A DNA stretch of 64,000 nucleotides. It comes from Haliotis rubra. Its lineage: Eukaryota. Shown here piece after piece: positions 10,345 to 50,474 of this stretch (the first letter of the stretch is position 1; the number at the start of each line of letters is the position of its first letter). The translations under genes were made by a program, and so were the position numbers. The notes below the pieces were generated by a model that saw nothing but the letters and a program-made list of their open reading frames with translations, made no database searches and was not told where the DNA came from. Location: NCBI RefSeq assembly GCF_003918875.1, contig NW_025767501.1:1302001-1366000 (forward strand), written 5' to 3'.

Positions 10345-10731
10345 ATAGAAAATCTCACTCTTGTGTCTACTGATATCAATTATATCAACACAAGTTGATA
10401 AAGTTACAAATATCCCAGGCTTGCCGAGGATATTTTTACTTTTATCGAGCATTGATATAATTGATATCAGTAGACATGAGGGTGAGATTCTATTTATCAT
10501 TACAAATCACTCTTCATTACTTTTCAATGAAAAATGTAAATCTCTGAACATGGTACTACCATTAGACTTGCAGTGCAGAGAACACATAGCATTGTGACAT
10601 CATCAAGTTCATGATGTCATAGCATTGTCAGGGCATTGTACAAAATCTACTGTCAAAACGATATCTCGTAGCAGATATCATTCGATCTCACACAAGCAAT
10701 ATCTCCTGTGGAACACAGTTTTGGGTGATAA
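10345..10731. mobile_element. Hairpin-headed non-autonomous element (possibly tyrosine-recombinase type)
   Basis: About 150-bp imperfect palindrome 10345-10493 with perfect 25-bp arms (10364-10388 / 10452-10476) and a central CCAGGCTTGCCGAGG. It is followed by TTATCA (10494-10499), which is complementary to the putative terminus TGATAA (10726-10731). Confidence 0.55.
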
Positions 10732-13942: not shown

Positions 13943-16001
13943 CTCCTCCACCCTCTTCTCCACAACCCTGATTCTCCTCTACCCTCATCTCCACAACCCT
14001 GATTCTCCTCCACCCTCATCTCCACAACTCTGATTCTCCTCCACCTTCATCTCAAAAACCCTGATTCTCCTCTACCCTCATCTCAACAACCCCTATTCTC
14101 TTCCACCCTCATCTCCACAACTCTGATTCTCCTCCACCCTCATCTCCACAACCCAGATTCTCCTCCACCCTCATCTCTACTACTCTGATTCTCCTCCACC
14201 CTCATCTCCACAACCCCTATTCTCTTCCACCCTCATTTCCACAACCCAGATTCTCCTCCACCCTCATCTCCACTACTCTGATTCTCCTCCACCCTCATCT
14301 CCACAACCCCTATTCTCTTCCACCCTCATCTCCACAACTCTGATTCTCCTCCACCCTCATCTCCACAACTCTGATTCTCCTCCACCCTCATTTCCACAAC
14401 CCAGATTCTCCTCCACCCTCATCTCCACTACTCTGATTCTCCCCCACCCTCATTTCCACAACCCAGATTCTCCTCCACCCTCATCTCCACTACTCTGATT
14501 CTCCTTCACCCTCATCTCCACAACCCTGATTCTCCTTCACCCTCATCTCCACAACTCTGATTCTCCTCCACCCTTATCTCCACAACCCTGATTCTCCTCC
14601 ACCCTCATCTCTACAACCCCATTTCTCCTCCACCGTCATCTCCACAACCCCAATTCTCCTCCACCCTCATCTCCACAACTCTGATTCTCCTCCACCCTCA
14701 TTTTCACAACCCTGATTCTCCTCCACCCTCATTTTCACAACCCTGATTCTCCTCCACCCTCAGCTCCACAACCCTGATTCTCCTCCACTCTCATCTCCAC
14801 AACCTAGATTCTCCTCCACCCTCATCTCTACAACCCAGATTCTCCTCCACCCTCATCTCCACAACTCTGATTCTCCTTCACCCTCATCTCCACAACTCTG
14901 ATTCTCCTCCACCCTCATCTCCACAACCCTGATTTTCCTCCACCCTCATCTCCACAACCCCGATTCTCCTCCGGCCTCATCTCCACAACTCTGATTCTCC
15001 TCCACCCTCATCTCCACAACCTCAATTCTCCTCCACTCTCATCTCCACAACCCCAATTCTCCTCCACCCTCATCTCCACAACTCTGATTCTCCTTCACCC
15101 TCATCTCCACAACCCAGATTCTCCTTCACCCTCATCTCCACAACTCTGATTCTCCTCCACCCTCATTTTCACAACCCTGATTCTCCTCCAGCCTCATCTC
15201 CACAACCCAGATTCTCCTCCACCCTCATCTCAACAACTCAGATTCTGCTCCACTCTCATCTCTACAACCCAGATTCTCCTCCACCCTCATCTCCACAACT
15301 CTGATTCTCCTCCACCCTCATCTCCACAACCCTGATTCTCCTCCACCCTCATCTCCACTACTCTGATTCTCTTCCACCCTCATCTCCACAACCCCTATTC
15401 TCTTCCACCCTCATTTCCACAACTCTGATTCTCATCCACCCTCATCTCCACAACCTGATTCTCCTCCACCCTCATCTCAACAACTCAGATTCTGCTCCAC
15501 CCTCATCTCCACAACTCTGAATCTCCTTCACCCTCATCTCCACAACTCTGATTCTCCTCCACCCTCATCTCAACAACTCTGATTCCCTTCCACCTTCATA
15601 TCCACAACCCTGATTCTCCTCCACCCTCATCTCACAACCCTGATTCTCCTTCATCCACATCTCCACAACCTAGATTCTCCTCCACCCTCATCTCCACAAC
15701 CCTGATTCTCCTCCACTCTCATCTCCACAACCCAGATTCTCCTCCACCCTCATCTCCACAAATCTGATTCTCCTCCACCCTCATCTCAACAACTCTGATT
15801 CCCCTCCACCTTCATATCCAAACCCTGATTTTCCTCCACCCTCATCTCCACAACCCTGATTCTCTTCCACCTTCATCTCCACAACCCCAATTCTCTTCCA
15901 CCCACATCTCACAACCCTGATTCTCCTTCATCCACATCTCCACAACCTAGATTCTCCTCCACCCTCATCTCCACAAATCTGATTCTCCTCCACCCTCATC
16001 T
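13943..16001. repeat. C-rich minisatellite, 31-bp unit, about 66 copies
   Basis: Unit CCACCCTCATCTCCACAACCCTGATTCTCCT (e.g. 13981, 14012); strong C/G strand asymmetry. Confidence 0.95.
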
Positions 16002-19394: not shown

Positions 19395-20130
19395 CCAGTG
19401 TTACCTGCTCACACTGATGTCTGCATTGTTAAAAATAACTCAATGGTGGCATGTTTGATGTCATTCCCCTCTACACAGTGTTAATTTGGGAGAAAATAGT
19501 GTACACTGTACACAAAACAACTTTCTGTTTCAAGTATGGGAAGTGAACACATATATTGATATGGTTCTAAGACACATAGAGACTACAGGAGATGCTCTTC
19601 TCCCCTACTGGATGATGATGCTATCATGTCATGTGCTGCAAGTGTGGCATTTCCAGTGGGAAGCACAATGGCATTCATCACCAATAAATGACAGTTCCAG
19701 TTTCTGTCCTGTCAGTTTGGTACCAAATGTATATTATTATCAGTTCCAATGCAGCAAATGTTTCCAGCAAAGAAAAAACTAACACATTGAAAATGCTTTG
19801 TTTATTTATGTTTATGTTTAAAAAATCCTTACAATCCATATAACAACTAATAAAAATGCCTAACTGGAATATTTTTGCATTCTGGGGCTAGTGTTTTATG
19901 ATATGAATGATTTCTAAAAGTTATTGAAAAGTAGTTTCTTTATATTTTGGTCTAGTCCATAAATGTAAGGGATAATGACTTCAACATGCCAATCCATCTG
20001 AACATTTTGGGTCATATAAATATCACTGCTGTCCAAAACATTCTGTGAGATGGGTCAAACTTGCATGTAATGATAACATTCTAAATCATTCTTCGATTTC
20101 ACTATCACTATTTAAAATGCTAACAAACAA

Positions 20131-22536
20131 TGCCAGCCCTTGTGTTGACCTCACCTGTCATACATTGTCTGTAGTGCTATGCCAGTCTCTGTGTGGGCCT
20201 CACCTGTCATACATTGTCTGTAGTGGTATGCCAGTCTCTGTGTGGGCCTCACCTGTCATACATTGTCTGTAGTGGTATGCCAGTCTCTGTGTGGGGTTCA
20301 CCTGTCATACATTGTCATTAGTGGTATGCCAACCCCTGTGTGGGGTTCACCTGTCATACATTGTCTGTAGTGGTATGTCTGTCTGTAGTGGTATGCCAGT
20401 CCTTGTGTGGGCCTCACCTGTCATACATTGTCTGTAGTGGTATGCCAGTCCTTGTGTGGGCCTCACCCATCATACATTGTCTATAGTTGTATGCCTGTCT
20501 GTAGTGGTATGCCAGTCCTTGTGTGGGCCTCACCTGTCATACATTGTCTGTAGGGTATGCCAGTCCTTGTGTGGGCCTCACCTGTCATACATTGTCTGTA
20601 GTGGTATGCCAGTCTCTGTGTGGGCCTCACCTGTCATACATTGTCTGTAGGGTATGCCAGTCCTTGTGTGAGCCTCACCTGTCATACATTGTCTGTAGTG
20701 GTATGTCTGTCCTTGTGTGGGCCTCACCTGTCATACATTGTCTGTAGTGGTATGCCAGCCCTTGTGTGAGCCTCACCTGTCATACATTGTCTGTAGTGGT
20801 ATGTCTGTCCTTGTGTGGGCCTCACCTGTCATACATTGTCTGTAGTGGTATGTCATGTATTGTCTTGTGGTATGCGGAGCCTCACCTGTCATACATTGTC
20901 TGTAGTGGTATGTCTGTCCATGTGTGGGCCTCACCTGTCATACATTGTCTGTAGGGTATGCCAGTCCTTGTGTGGGCCTCACCTATCATACATTGTCTGT
21001 AGTGGTATGCCAGTCCTTGTGTGGGCCTCACCTGTCATACATTGTCTGTAGTGGTATGCCAGTCCTTGTGTGAGCCTCACCTATCATACATTGTCTGTAG
21101 TAGTATGCCAGCCCTTGTGTGGACCTCACCTGTCATACATTGTCTGTAGTGGTATGCCAGTCCTTGTGTGAGCCTGCCAGTCCTTGTGTGAGCCTCACCT
21201 ATCATACATTGTCTGTAGTGGTATGCCAGTCCTTGTGTGAGCCTCACCTATCATACATTGTCTGTAGTAGTATGCCAGTCCTCTGTGTTGACCTCACCTG
21301 TCATACATTGTCTGTAGTGGTATGCCAGTCCTTGTGTGGGCCTCACCCATCATACATTGTCTATAGTTGTATGCCTGTCTGTAGTGGTATGCCAGTCCTT
21401 GTGTGAGCCTCACCTATCATACATTGTCTGTAGTGGTATGCCAGTCCTTGTGTGAGCCTCACCTATCATACATTGTCTGTAGTAGTATGCCAGCCCTTGT
21501 GTGGGCCTCACCCATCATACATTGTCTATAGTTGTATGCCTGTCTGTAGTGGTATGCCAGTCCTTGTGTGAGCCTCACCTATCATACATTGTCTGTAGTG
21601 GTATGCCAGTCCTTGTGTGAGCCTCACCTATCATACATTGTCTGTAGTAGTATGCCAGCCCTTGTGTTGACCTCACCTGTCATACATTGTCTGTAGTGGT
21701 ATGCCAGCCCTTGTGTGAGCCTCACCTATCATATATTGTCTATAGTGGTATGTCTGTCCATGTGTGGGCCTCACCTGTCATACATTGTCTGTAGTGGTAT
21801 GCCAGTCTCTGTGTTGACCTCACCTGTCATACATTGTCTGTAGTAGTATGTCTGTCCTTGTGTGGGCCTCACCTGTCATATATTGTCTGTAGTGGTATGC
21901 CAGTCCTTGTGTGGGCCTCACCTGTCATACATTGTCTGTAGTGGTATGTCTGTCCTTGTGTGGGCCTCACCTGTCATATATTGTCTGTAGTTGTATGCCA
22001 GTCCTTGTGTGGGCCTCACCTGTCATACATTGTCTGTAGTAGTATGTCTGTCCTTGTGTGGGCCTCACCTATCATATATTGTCTGTAGTGGTATGCCAGC
22101 CCTTGTGTGAGCCTCACCTATCATACATTGTCTGTAGTAGTATGTCTGTCCTTGTGGGCCTCTCCTGTCATATATTGTCTGTAGTGGTATGCCAGTCTCT
22201 GTGTGGACCTCACCTGTCATACATTGTCTGTAGTGGTATGTCTGTCCTTGTGTGGGCCTCACCTGTCATATATTGTCTGTAGTGGTATGCCAGTCTCTGT
22301 GTGGGCCTCACCTGTCATACATTGTGTGTAGTGGTATGCCAGTCTCTGTGTGGGCCTCACCTGTCATACATTGTCTATAGTGGTATGCCAGTCTCTGTGT
22401 GGACCTCACCTGTCATACATTGTCTGTAGTGGTATGTCTGTCCTTGTGTGGGCCTCACCTGTCATACATTGTCTATTGTGGTATGCCAGTCTCTGTGTGG
22501 ACCTCACCTATCATACATTGTCTGTAGTGGTATGCC
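20131..22536. repeat. 49-bp satellite, left arm (about 49 units)
   Basis: Unit GCCAGTCTCTGTGTGGGCCTCACCTGTCATACATTGTCTGTAGTGGTAT (20181, 20230, ...). Confidence 0.95.
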
Positions 22537-27099: not shown

Positions 27100-28172
27100 A
27101 GTCTCTGTGTGGGCCTCACCTGTCATACATTGTCTATAGTGGTATGTCAGTCTCTGTGTGGACCTCACCTATCATACATTGTCTGTAGTGGTATGTCTGT
27201 CCTTGTGTGGGCCTCACCTGTCATATATTGTCTGTAGTGGTATGCCAGTCTCTGTGTTGACCTCACCTGTCATACATTGTCTGTAGTGGTATGCCAGTCT
27301 CTGTGTGTGGACCTCACCTATCATACATTGTCTGTAGTGGTATGTCTGTCCTTGTGTGGGCCTCACCTGTCATATATTGTCTGTAGTGGTATGCCAGTCT
27401 CTGTGTTGACCTCACCTGTCATACATTGTCTGTAGTGGTATGCCAGTCTCTGTGTGGACCTCACCTGTCATACATTGTCTGTAGTGGTATGTCTGTCCTT
27501 GTGTGGGCCTCACCTGTCATATATTGTCTATAGTGGTATGCCAGTCCTTGTGTGGGGTTCACCTGTCATACATTGTCTGTAGTGGTATGTCTGTCCTTGT
27601 GTGGGCCTCACCTGTCAGATATTGTCTGTAGTGGTATGCCAGTCCTTGTGTGGGCCTCACCTGTCATACATTGTCTGTAGTGGTATGCCAGTCTCTGTGT
27701 TGACCTCACCTGTCATACATTGTCTGTAGTGGTATGCCAGTCTCTGTGTGGACCTCACCTGTCATACATTGTCTGTAGTGGTATGTCTGTCCTTGTGTGG
27801 GCCTCACCTGTCATATATTGTGTGTAGTGGTATGCCAGTCCTTGTGTGGGCCTCACCTGTCATACATTGTCTGTAGTGGTATGCCAGTCTCTGTGTGGAC
27901 CTCACCTGTCATACATTGTCTGTAGTGGTATGCCAGTCTCTGTGTGGGCCTCACCTGTCATACATTGTCTGTAGTGGTATGCCAGTCTCTGTGTGGGCCT
28001 CACCCATCATACATTGTCTGTAGTGGTATGCCAGTCTCTGTGTGGACCTCACCTGTCATACATTGTCTGTAGTGGTATGTCTGTCTTGTGTGGGCCTCAC
28101 CTGTCATACATTGTCTGTAGTGGTATGCCAGTCTCTGTGTGGACCTCACCTGTCATATATTGTCTGTAGTGA
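27100..28172. repeat. 49-bp satellite, right arm (about 22 units)
   Basis: Same unit and orientation as 20131-22536. Confidence 0.95.
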
Positions 28173-32029: not shown

Positions 32030-33453
32030 TGGGCAGTGCAAGAAGTTCATGGTTCATGTAAGCTTTGGACAGTGTGAGAAGTTTATGGTCCATGTAAACC
32101 TTGGACAGTGTGGGAAGTTTATGGTCCATGTAAACCTTGGACAGTGTGAGAAGTTCATGGTTCATTTATGCCTGGGGAGTGCAAGAAGTTCCCAGATATT
32201 CTGGGAGTAACATGGTTCCTGTATGGCTGGACAGTGTGAGAAGTTCATGGTTCATGTAAGCCTGGACAGTGCCAGATATTCTGTGAGTAATATGATTCCT
32301 GTAAGGCTGGACAGTGCCAGACATTCTGTGAGTAATATGGTTCCTGTAAGGCTGAACAGTGCCAGATATTCTGTGAGTAACATGGTTCCTGTAAGGCTGG
32401 ACAGTGCCAGATATTCTGGGAGTAACATGGTTCCTGTATGGCTGGACAGTGCCAGACATTCTGTGAGTAATATGGTTCCTGTAAGGCTGGACAGTACCAG
32501 ATATTCTGGGAGTAACATGGTTCCTGTATGGCTGGACAGTGCCAGATATTCTGGGAGTAACATGGTTCCTGTAAGGCTGGACAGTGCCAGATATTCTGGG
32601 AGTAACATGGTTCCTGTAAGGCTGGACAGTGCCAGACATTCTGGGAGTAATATGGTTCCTGTAAGGCTGGACAGTGCCAGATATTCTGGGAGTAATATGG
32701 TTATTCTGGGAGTGGGTGCAGATATTCTGGGGGTAACATGTAAGATATTCTGGGAGTAACACTGGTTTCCTGTATGGCTGAGACAGTGCCAGATATTCTG
32801 GGAGTATGGTTCCTGTAAGGCTGGACATTGCCAGATATTCTGGGAGTAACATGGTTCCTGTATGGCTGGACAGTGCCAGATATTCTGGGAGTAACATGGT
32901 TCCTGGGAGTAACATGGTTCCTGTATGGCTGAACAGTACCAGATATTCTGGGAGGCTGGGGAGTAATATGGTTCTGTACAGTGCCAGATATTCTGGGAGT
33001 AACATGGTTCCTGTATGGCTGGACAGTGACAGATATTCTGGGAGTAACATGGTTCCTGTATGGCTGGGACAGTACTAGATATTCTGGGAGTAACATGGTT
33101 CCTGTATGGCTGACAGTACCAGATATTCTGGGAGTAACATGGTTCCTGTAAGGCTGGACAGTGACAGATATTCTGGGAGTAACATGGTTCCTGTAAGGCT
33201 GGACAGTACCAGATATTCTGGGAGTAACATGGTTCCTGTAAGGCTGGACAGTACCAGATATTCTGGGAGTAACATGGTTCCTGTAAGGCTGGACAGTGAC
33301 AGATATTCTGGGAGTAACATGGTTCCTGTATGGCTGGACAGTACCAGATATTCTGGGAGTAACATGGTTCCTGTAAGGCTGGACAGTACCAGATATTCTG
33401 GGAGTAACATGGTTCCTGTATGGCTGGACAGTACCAGATATTCTGGGAGTAAC
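32030..33453. repeat. Compound minisatellite: 36-bp units followed by related 45-bp units
   Basis: GGACAGTGTGAGAAGTTTATGGTCCATGTAAACCTT (36 bp), then GGACAGTGCCAGATATTCTGGGAGTAACATGGTTCCTGTAAGGCT (45 bp). These give the 12- and 15-aa periodic ORFs. Confidence 0.95.
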
Positions 33454-43659: not shown

Positions 43660-45714
43660 GCTGTCACTCACTATTACATGCATGCTGTCACTCACTATTA
43701 CATGCATGCTGTGAGTGTACTATTATATGCATGCTGTCACTCACTATTACATGCATGCTGTCACTCACTATTACATGCATGCTGTCACTCACTATTACAT
43801 GCATGCTGTCACTCACTATTACATGCATGCTGTCACTCACTATTACATGCATGCTGTCACTCACTATTACATGCATGCTGTCACTCACTATTACATGCAT
43901 GCTGTCACTCACTATTACATGCATGCTGTCACTACACTATTACATGCATGTTGTCACTCACTATTACATGCATGCTGTCACTCACTATTACATGCATGCT
44001 CTGAGTGTACTATTACATGCATGCTGTCACTCACTATTACATGCATGCTGTCACTCACTATTACATGCATGCTGTCACTACTATTACATGCATGCTGTCA
44101 CTCACTATTACATGCATGCTGTCACTGTACACTATTACATGCATGCTGTCACTCACTATTACATGCATGCTGTCACTCACTATTATATGCATGCTGTCAC
44201 TCACTATTACATGCATGCTGTCACTCACTATTACATGCATGCTGTCACTCACTATTACATGCATGCTGTCACTCACTATTACATGCATGCTGTCACTCAC
44301 TATTACATGCATGCTGTCACTCACTATTACATGCATGCTGTCACTCACTATTACATGCATGCTGTCACTCACTATTACATGCATGCTGTCACTCACTATT
44401 ACATGCATGCTGTCACTCACTATTACATGCATGCTGTCACTCACTATTACATGCATGCTGTCACTCACTATTACATGCATGCTGTCACTCACTATTACAT
44501 GCATGCTGTCACTCACTATTACATGCATGCTGTCACTCACTATTACATGCATGCTGTCACTCACTATTACATGCATGTTGTCACTCACTATTACATGCAT
44601 GCTGTCACTCACTATTACATGCCTACTGTCACTCACTATTACATGCATGCTGTCATTCACTATTACATGCATGTTGTCACTCACTATTACATGCATGCTG
44701 TCACTCACTATTACATGCATGCTGTCACTCACTATTACATGCATGCTGTCACTCACTATTACATGCATGCTGTCACTCACTATTACATGCATGCTGTCAC
44801 TCACTATTACATGCATACTGTCATTCACTCATTATTGCATTACATGCTGTCACTCACTATTACATGCATGCTGTCATTCACTATTACATGCCTACTGTCA
44901 TTCACTATTACATGCCTACTGTCATTCACTATTACATGCCTACTGTCATTCACTATTACATGCATGCTGTCATTCACTATTACATGCATGCTGTCATTCA
45001 CTATTACATGCATGCTGTCACTCACTATTACATGCATGCTGTCACTCACTATTATATGCATGCTGTCACTCACTATTACATGCATGCTGTCACTCACTAT
45101 TACATGCATGCTGCTGTCACTCACTATTACATGCATGCTGTCACTCACTATTACATGCATGCTGTCACTCACTATTACATGCATGCTGTCACTCACTATT
45201 ACATGCATGCTGTCACTCACTATTACATGCATGCTGTCACTCACTATTACATGCATGCTGTCACTCACTATTACATGCATGCTGTCACTCACTATTACAT
45301 GCATGCTGTCACTCACTATTACATGCATGCTGTCATTACATGCATGCTGTCACTCACTATTACATGCATGCTGTCACTCTCTATTACATGCATGCTGTCA
45401 CTCTCACTATTATGCATGCTGTCACTCACTATTACATGCATGCTGTCACTCACTATTACATGCATGCTGTCACTCACTATTACATGCATGCTGTCACTCA
45501 CTATTACATGCATGCTGTCACTCACTATTACATGCATACTGTCACTCACTATTACATGCATGCTGTCACTCACTATTACATGCATGCTGTCACTCACTAT
45601 TACATGCATGCTGCCACTCACTATTACATGCATGCTGTCACTCACTATTACATGCATGCTGCCACTCACTATTACATGCTTGCTGTCACTCACTAAAACA
45701 TGCATGCTGTCACT
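43660..45714. repeat. 24-bp minisatellite, about 85 copies
   Basis: Unit GCTGTCACTCACTATTACATGCAT. It is stop-free in all three plus frames, which produces the 722- and 563-aa ORFs. Confidence 0.97.
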
Positions 45715-48093: not shown

Positions 48094-49328
48094 TAAAAAA
48101 TTCCAAATGAACCCTATCAGCACTTATTTAATGTATGAGGGAAGGTTAATAATGATTTCTTTTAGTCTTTTTCTGAATGAGACGGTGACAATTGAATTTT
48201 CTGTTCCATGGCAACTTTATCCACAGAACATAACCAACAGGTGGTTATATCAGCTGTTCCTAGTTTATTCCAAATGATGTCTTTTAACATTCATGTTGAT
48301 GAAAGCACATCTCTTATGCTTCGTAAAGCATTGAATATACTTGATGTTCTAACTAACCTGCACAATCATTACAGCAGCCATACAGAAAACAATACTACTG
48401 GCAACTCATCCACAGTTTCAGGCAGGTAGTTACTGTGACTGTGGAACTTAGGCCTTGATATATTCTATTTTCTTTTACTGACAGTAAAGGCAAGTACAGT
48501 TTAAACCAGTTCAACTCCAGTCTCCATGAACAAAACAGCAGTGGAAAGTTTCTTTGAAAAGATATGAATTAAATTTTAAGGACATGTTTTCACGGTAGTC
48601 TGAAGCATTTGCCTGACAATGAAGGGGTTCAGTTCATCCAAGACATCAGAATTTAATATTCACGTATAGTTCTATTAGTCTGTGAGGCATTTTGGACACC
48701 TTTTATCATTATTACTTATTTTATAAATATATTTCTCATGATCCATGGTCAAACTAAAAATAGAGAATTTGGTGTAAGTTCCTTAAATGATCACTTAAAA
48801 GTATTTTCAGTATTGTGGAATAAGGAAAAAGTTTATATATTTAAATAACTAAGTTTTACACCTCCATTGACCTTTTTATATTTATTGTCCTTGCTAATTT
48901 GATTGGACTTGGTGTGGCATTAACAAAACAGTTCTGAAAATGTAATTGTGATGTAGTTTCTGCTCACTGTTAACTTGACAATGTATTTCTAAATCAGTAC
49001 TTGCTCTTTTAAAAACCAATTCTTCACTGTCGAATATATTTTAATAAATAATACTGGCCATTAGTATTACAGATATATCTTTGTTGAAGACAAATGTCTG
49101 TGGCCTTTGTGGATGATATTGCGAAGTCACACAGTTTCAACATTTGTCTAAGAACAGTATAATGGATGGGGTTGAAGCCTTTTCAGTGTCATGCATCATT
49201 TATGGATGTAGTGATTGAAACAATTTAGAATTCAAAATTTAATTGTTTTCACTTTCTTTGATATATATTTTTCAATATGTCACTGACTCACTCCCAGCAT
49301 CATAATGTTCCTATCAACGCGTCTTTTT

Positions 49329-50234
49329 AAGAAATACAGTTCGCTCTACCACCATGTATAGTGTAATAAAGCACACTTTCGCCCTGAACTATTATAGTTA
49401 AAGCACGAGGACGCTTGAGTGCTTGAACGTTATAATAGTTCAGGGCGAAAGTGTGCTTTATTACACTATACATGGTGGTAGAGCGAACTGTATTTCTTTT
49501 CTAAGATGCCAAATTTAATGCTTTCTAAGGATAATTACGATTAATCTAAGGCAGAAAACAAACAACGGTTTTGGTGACCTGAATTAAGAATCACCACACA
49601 GGGCTAACTGGTGCGCTGTTCTATTGATGTGTCTGCCCCCCTATGTTAAGACGAACGTTACCAGAAAAAAACAAATGCTAAACAGTTCGATGACGGTTTA
49701 CGTTCGGATTAATATCTTCTTTAAATTATTTTACTTACATCTGTGACTAACGTAAACCATATGGGGCTATATGAACGTCACATTTCTACTACCAACATTA
49801 ATTAAGATCAGTACACCCAGATGAAGCTGAGTAGTCAAGTGGCATTCCACGATTGCATTCTGGGAATGTAAACATTGCGAACGTTTAATGTCGGTGAAAA
49901 CTTGTGAGTCGAATTGAGACATTTTAACTGTTGGAAAACATAAACGTAATGTTTCCACCAGTGATGTTAGTTGCGTGAAGCAACTGCAAATCAAGAAACA
50001 GGATGCAACGGAGTAGTTTACTGTAGGAGGCTGTATGAGGCGATGTCAGCTGACATGCATCGTGACGTCGCTTACATTGTGACGTAATGCAAAAAAGTGT
50101 TCGATTACGAGGGGGCAGACTAGAATGGTGCAGTGACACCAATACGTTGTGACGTAATATATTGCAAAAAGTGCACATTATCGTCTGATAAAGTACTGTT
50201 GGTGCCTTTGATCTTTCACCGAAGCATCTTAGAA
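49329..50234. mobile_element. Young hairpin-headed non-autonomous element with an ICR-like junction
   Basis: Perfect 68-bp inverted arms 49329-49396 / 49431-49498, immediately followed by TTCTAAGATGC (49499-49509). Its exact complement GCATCTTAGAA lies at 50224-50234. The body retains CpGs, unlike the flanks. Confidence 0.7.
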
Positions 50235-50279
50235 TTACAATTATTATTGATTTGCAGTTCCAATGACCAAAACACAGGA

Positions 50280-50474
50280 GAAGGATGAGGACTATTTTTT
50301 ATGGATATACAACTTCTTTATTCTGTATAGGCGACATTTTGACATGGATTCTAACGTCGTCAAGCAAGAATCTATGTCGAAACGTCGCCTATACAGAATA
50401 ATCAAGTTGTATATCCATAAAAAATAGTCCTCATCCTTCATCTTCCCAACTTCTAGAATGCCAATCAAAGAAGT
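50280..50474. mobile_element. Inverted pair of Penelope-like pLTR 3' ends
   Basis: About 73-bp inverted arms 50280-50352 / 50367-50439 carrying GTCGAAACGTCG...AATAA..AAGTTGTATATCC. Flanked by AAAACACAGGAGA (50269-50281) / AAAACATAGGAGA (50475-50487). Confidence 0.6.

Follow-up and report, generated by a model that had tools for sequence, protein, structure and literature searches.

What kind of mobile element opens with a long perfect hairpin and carries inside it a string complementary to its own joined ends, and which enzyme moves it? This question is raised by a locus in the window, as we call the whole 64,000-nt stretch of Haliotis rubra DNA analysed here. A sequence-only reading had placed such an element at 49329-50234, with the layout A-loop-A'-B-body-B', and had likened it to DIRS retroelements. 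The layout was borne out: A (49329-49396) and A' (49431-49498) form a perfect 68-bp pair, and B, which directly adjoins A', forms a perfect 11-bp pair with B' (Table 1). In the single-strand fold, the A:A' and B:B' stems stand side by side (z = -18.8; 0/20 shuffles as good). In the family form, the hairpin measures 176 nt and has a loop of 2 nt; from its tip, 6 bp are absent in the window copy. The tip motif resembles the tips of several DUF3504 element hairpins.

Table 1. Coordinates of the element and its parts in the window.
Feature	Position	Strand	Basis or remark
Whole non-autonomous element	49327..50234	.	908 bp, without TSD; shared copy ends, empty sites
Terminal 7-nt spacer, opening with TT	49327..49333	+	copies, empty sites; 7 nt conserved in YR families
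Terminal hairpin A-loop-A'	49329..49498	.	arms, folding, copy comparison
Internal mirror of the end junction	49488..49509	+	5-nt spacer at 49494-49498 instead of 7
B, 11 bp	49499..49509	+	
B', right terminus ending GAA	50224..50234	+	copies; orthologous empty site
223-bp module	49854..50075	+	85-89% to a non-autonomous element with the ends of YR family L168, orientation opposite relative to the hairpin
Two TGACGT-containing motifs near B'	50077..50173	+	second copy subfamily-specific
Right half of host target, 6-nt core then WTA	50235..50243	+	sequence, empty orthologous site, consensus

The left boundary had to be moved from 49329 to 49327. A leading TT was present in 51/51 and 50/51 copies with a scored left end, and it was absent from paralogous empty sites. 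Contigs broke off 91-100 times at each of positions 49326 and 49327 in three of four runs, and 71 times at 49326 in the fourth. The right boundary held at 50234, because in run X7 (organism C) a single contig passes from the left flank straight into 50235, representing an orthologous empty site. The 14 bp at 49313-49326 are absent from that site and may be either filler added at insertion or a deletion in the X7 lineage. An allelic empty site within the assembly was ruled out, as the left flank is single-copy. Paralogous empty sites were found at gap 0 (L023, L029 and L050) and at -1/+1 in T runs (L046 and L047), with a match at L041 left out as spurious; both kinds of empty site agree with the earlier statement that the element has no TSD. 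As the TT belongs to the element, the spacer of the end junction is 7 nt, against 5 nt in the internal mirror. The claim that the internal string is the exact complement of the joined ends therefore stands in part: 49488-49509 is the reverse complement of the joint 50224-50234 plus 49329-49339, but the true ends add TT.

The absence of a coding sequence was upheld. Seven stop-to-stop frames of at least 40 aa overlap the element, the longest being 124 aa, and six-frame translations of five copies gave no match to 94 Crypton ORFs. A body motif recurs as described before (50077-50099 and 50147-50173); roughly half of the aligned copies have other sequence in place of its second occurrence, and a promoter role is possible for these TGACGT-containing motifs. 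Other repeats were also observed in the window. A second, separate palindromic repeat lies at 50280-50474 (73-bp arms, 93%); it is high-copy by depth, has its own right boundary near 50474, reached the gathering score of no Rfam family, and is by our guess of Penelope/hammerhead-like origin. Another hairpin repeat, at 10347-10614, is similar to the left flank of L007, and by eye its sequence is like the L124/L126 Crypton hairpin. Long minisatellite arrays occupy 13943-16001, 20130-22536, 27100-28171, 32246-33453 and 43660-45714, with units of 31, 49/98, 49, 45 and 24 bp, respectively, the 49-bp unit being common to two arrays.

A copy search of the 1.38-Gb assembly gave 3200 first-look candidates, 40 of which were scored, and the genome proved to hold a high-copy family sharing both termini. 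Most scored copies begin to align at ~49327 and run either to 50234 or as far as ~50137, the point from which a second right-end variant differs, although it keeps B'. Read depth over the element was thousands of times the flank depth in runs X1 and X2, a depth that is not a copy number. A hairpin or its remnant precedes B in 28 of 29 other body-only matches; hairpin and body therefore travel together, and the alternative of two adjacent MITEs was rejected in favour of the single non-autonomous element first proposed. The perfect arms had also been taken to imply recent activity, but the best-match identity of the window copy (91.8%) is the lowest of the 42 compared, with other copies reaching 99.8%.

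The arms also record how the ends are maintained. Private left-arm changes were mirrored in only 2 of 34 cases (36 copies), and some one-arm variants were common to several copies. In one subfamily, ten changes are mirrored in 11-14 copies, which equals one inherited event; in the same subfamily, the mirror mismatches the left end beside the spacer. These comparisons indicate that differences between the arms are passed on and not corrected against the mirror, and that the mirror does not rebuild the ends in each cycle, unlike in the DIRS model. Tip orientation was recorded for 83 of 87 loci, comprising 41 full flips, 3 full flops, 17 partial flips, 4 partial flops, 3 symmetrised tips (two of which are one insertion) and 15 unscored. 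Tip flipping was rejected as proof of rolling-hairpin replication: it is not diagnostic, a resident DIRS hairpin flips too, and any long palindrome could produce a flip. In the DIRS1-like elements, the hairpin centre is inverted between L079 and L082.

The same end design was found on elements carrying DUF3504 tyrosine recombinase (YR) genes in this genome. We read 110 of 151 DUF3504 matches and scored 150 of 648 candidates. At first scoring, the hairpin-B...B' geometry appeared in 15 of 23 multi-copy families; the other eight gave none, and elsewhere only some members did. The final set of 15 families leaves out L130, in which B' was misplaced, and includes the singleton L117. All 15 share the layout, the 7-vs-5 spacer and the target bias of the element. 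At their left ends, 35-39 of 40 agree at positions -7 to -1 and 25 of 40 at -8, indicating that conservation extends over 7 nt, with 5 nt in the mirror; the register follows a rule that was revised after it had come out wrong for five families. As in the element, TT opens two families and GAA closes one. The ORFs of L112 and L124 match DUF3504 and Phage_integrase without an RT match, and carry R, HxxR, H and Y motifs that we take to be of the catalytic type. No RT was matched in the six YR ORFs scanned for it. A PDB sequence search returned QRICH1 (E 5e-31) and XerA (E 0.04), and a structure model of one YR ORF, at pLDDT 47, was too poor for structure searching. The CryptonA families (L106-L135, L165-L244) fall into two fixed classes, according to the side of the YR gene, upstream or downstream, on which the hairpin lies. 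In L269:1310-1500, L109 and L120/L122, a mirror on both hairpin sides or long inverted end duplications were observed, forms that hairpin-primed fold-back synthesis would give.

Element and YR families also share a target. In uncurated unique left flanks of the element family, TA stands at -3/-2 in 37 of 61, and in right flanks at +8/+9 in 43 of 75 (other right-flank offsets, 2-11/75), against a background of 7.5%. The target is thus a dyad, TAW^N6WTA, with a 6-bp core at whose left edge the cut falls; this core length is within the 6-8 bp spacing given for YR sites in the text of PMC3212892. YR elements show TA at -3/-2 in 25/44 flanks and at +8/+9 in 19/45. The preference is a bias and not a rule, the left flank of the window copy being TTT. 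The element's own spacer opens 0 of 75 right flanks. Terminal direct repeats of 4-6 bp, a CryptonF/S trait, are absent: right flanks are variable and 0/75 repeat the left terminus.

Two loci link the family to CryptonA directly. At L174, a CryptonA copy is inserted in an arm of the element family, and it has the left context of the site that precedes family copies in L013 and L056; with the flank bias, this matches the target specificity of the family to that of resident CryptonA. At L343, one autonomous L168-family element is arrayed with non-autonomous copies that carry the same ends, and these copies share 223 bp with window positions 49854-50075 at 85-89%. Two head-to-tail joints between the autonomous element and the non-autonomous copies read B'-7 nt-A, and such tandem junctions could come from insertion at a regenerated site. 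The tandem and inverted L168-family Crypton array (L343:156-4769), with its precise joints, recalls cassette arrays.

A search for longer copies with the same ends that encode a tyrosine recombinase, RT or Rep protein had been suggested by the sequence-only reading; an autonomous element with the family's own ends was not found in the 110 DUF3504 loci, nor in 70 further YR loci that partly overlap them, and the 30 Phage_integrase loci compared, out of 101 matches, showed no similarity to the element. L218 was considered as the autonomous partner and rejected, being a CryptonA nested in an older family copy. Searches with the older L218 body and with the right end of the element each gave no YR-coding relative in 29 loci.

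The locus is a gene-less family copy whose ends, mirror and target bias match those of resident DUF3504 YR elements, and we consider it probable, on the whole, that it is moved in trans by such a recombinase, probably as a folded single strand. That the mobiliser was a CryptonA-type recombinase is highly probable; the single-strand route, proposed by analogy, is a fair expectation held with a little less assurance than the reading as a whole. On its sequence features, the element would be classed as non-autonomous CryptonA-type and not as DIRS. In the proposed mechanism, the top strand would fold by pairing A with A' and B with B', and the internal mirror would splint both ends into a recombination site whose central spacer stays unpaired. 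Top strands alone would then be exchanged by the recombinase, at the left edge of the spacer and independently of spacer homology, leaving the resulting junction to be resolved by replication. Such a one-strand exchange would always leave the element spacer on the left and the six host bases on the right. One subfamily tolerates mismatches beside the spacer, which counts against this reading.

The same CryptonA-type recombinase might instead act through a double-stranded circle (the Goodwin model), the spacer being non-homologous and the mirror and hairpin an accessory site for binding, resolution or replication. Tn916-type recombinases tolerate spacer mismatch, which speaks for this route. 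All sequence links to CryptonA suit it equally well. The double-stranded circle is the standing Crypton model, as presented in PMC3212892. However, a circle predicts both spacer arrangements after repair, whereas the element's spacer is found in none of the 75 right flanks, and it leaves the 7-vs-5 offset conserved in 15 families unexplained. It is further disfavoured by the lack of body-flipped copies among the 29 body-only matches, and we judge this route unlikely, though not negligibly so. Body inversion through two equivalent junctions was rejected on the same count (0/29), with the hairpin side fixed within YR families.

The DIRS assignment fared worse. A non-autonomous DIRS-type retroelement, in which an internal complementary region (ICR) rebuilds the cDNA ends, can point to full DIRS elements with RT, YR and the A-loop-A'-B...B' outline in this genome, and to the ICR being essential for DIRS-1 in the account given in PMC7192593. 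The resident DIRS elements nevertheless combine a B of ~40 bp and an ITR of ~64 bp with a junction that is exact and has a short overlap; the element has a 2-nt junction surplus, inherited arm mismatches and no ITR, its only inverted terminal repeats being the 11-bp B/B' pair. There is no sequence similarity between the element and the 30 Phage_integrase loci, and the matching recombinase elements carry DUF3504 and lack RT. A DIRS origin is accordingly very improbable. The loci L092-L105 include several DIRS1-like families, ~5 kb in length, that bear a long terminal hairpin.

Least probable of all, by a shade, is mobilisation by an HUH enzyme, the element being a non-autonomous Helitron2/Helentron whose minus strand reads 5' ATIR, then 3' ATIR and hairpin. 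Asymmetric 11-bp repeats that lead into a hairpin, without TSD, suit the outline in PMC3627910, and RepHel genes are present in the genome, but the inner repeat lies ~175 bp from the end instead of the 20-30 defined in that source, the target is a dyad, the same end design is found on YR genes, and 29 Rep loci read with 1.5-kb flanks, in which the Rep element ends were not reached, showed no similarity. Between the two mobilisers first named, a tyrosine recombinase or an HUH enzyme, the evidence favours the former.

Returning to the CryptonA-type reading, we compared the element with known systems. Published CryptonA and their non-autonomous derivatives, as described in PMC3212892 and, for the salmon Crypton-N/Eulor5-6, in PMC5753468, are alike in a DUF3504 YR-only gene content, the lack of TSD and abundant gene-less derivatives. 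They differ from what is seen here in the terminal hairpin, the 11-bp B/B' pair, the 7-vs-5 mirror junction and the dyad target; terminal repeats in animal Cryptons were not found by Kojima and Jurka 2011, according to the text of PMC3212892. DIRS-1-type elements, in the account of PMC7192593, share an internal segment complementary to both termini, a YR and the lack of a classical TSD, but their ICR is exact and rebuilds the ends after reverse transcription, and they have ITRs and a duplicated trinucleotide. In the element, the mirror is 2 nt short, there is no ITR or RT link, and no trinucleotide is present at both ends. Integron attC cassettes and CTXphi, as outlined in PMC2727003 and PMC3442271, resemble the proposed site in being a folded single strand whose central spacer is unpaired, in the exchange of one strand, in replicative resolution and in tandem arrays. 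Their enzymes are bacterial and their mechanism has been shown, whereas here the mechanism is inferred and both ends would be splinted on an internal mirror. Helitron2/Helentron elements, as characterised in PMC3627910, share short asymmetric inverted repeats, a terminal hairpin and the lack of TSD, and their trait of 8-15 bp asymmetric TIRs, the inner one beside the hairpin, is present in the element; the element differs in its ~170-bp hairpin, its dyad target and an end design common to YR elements. Non-autonomous CryptonA are thus already known, and what seems new is the end design, of which the literature searched, Repbase entries (which may record parts) not included, held no description.

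As far as the text of PMC3212892 goes, the founding paper settled neither the ends of animal Cryptons nor their target or mechanism. The end grammar described here (hairpin, 10-15 bp B/B', 7-vs-5 spacer and dyad target) is conserved; it provides a rule by which many hairpin repeats could be annotated, and names exact substrates for in vitro testing. Through it, RT-less elements are connected with the ICR layout of DIRS, and it is relevant to the ancestry of the DUF3504 host genes (ZMYM, QRICH1 and KCTD1). We lean slightly towards the wider proposal that animal CryptonA are integron-like: a DUF3504 recombinase would recognise a folded strand with a 7-vs-5 bulged site built by the internal mirror and pass one strand into any TAW^N6WTA duplex, spacer homology not being required, with replication finishing the reaction. 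If true, such a chemistry of transposition would be one that the literature searched does not describe for eukaryotes, and it would offer a sequence-relaxed integration tool.
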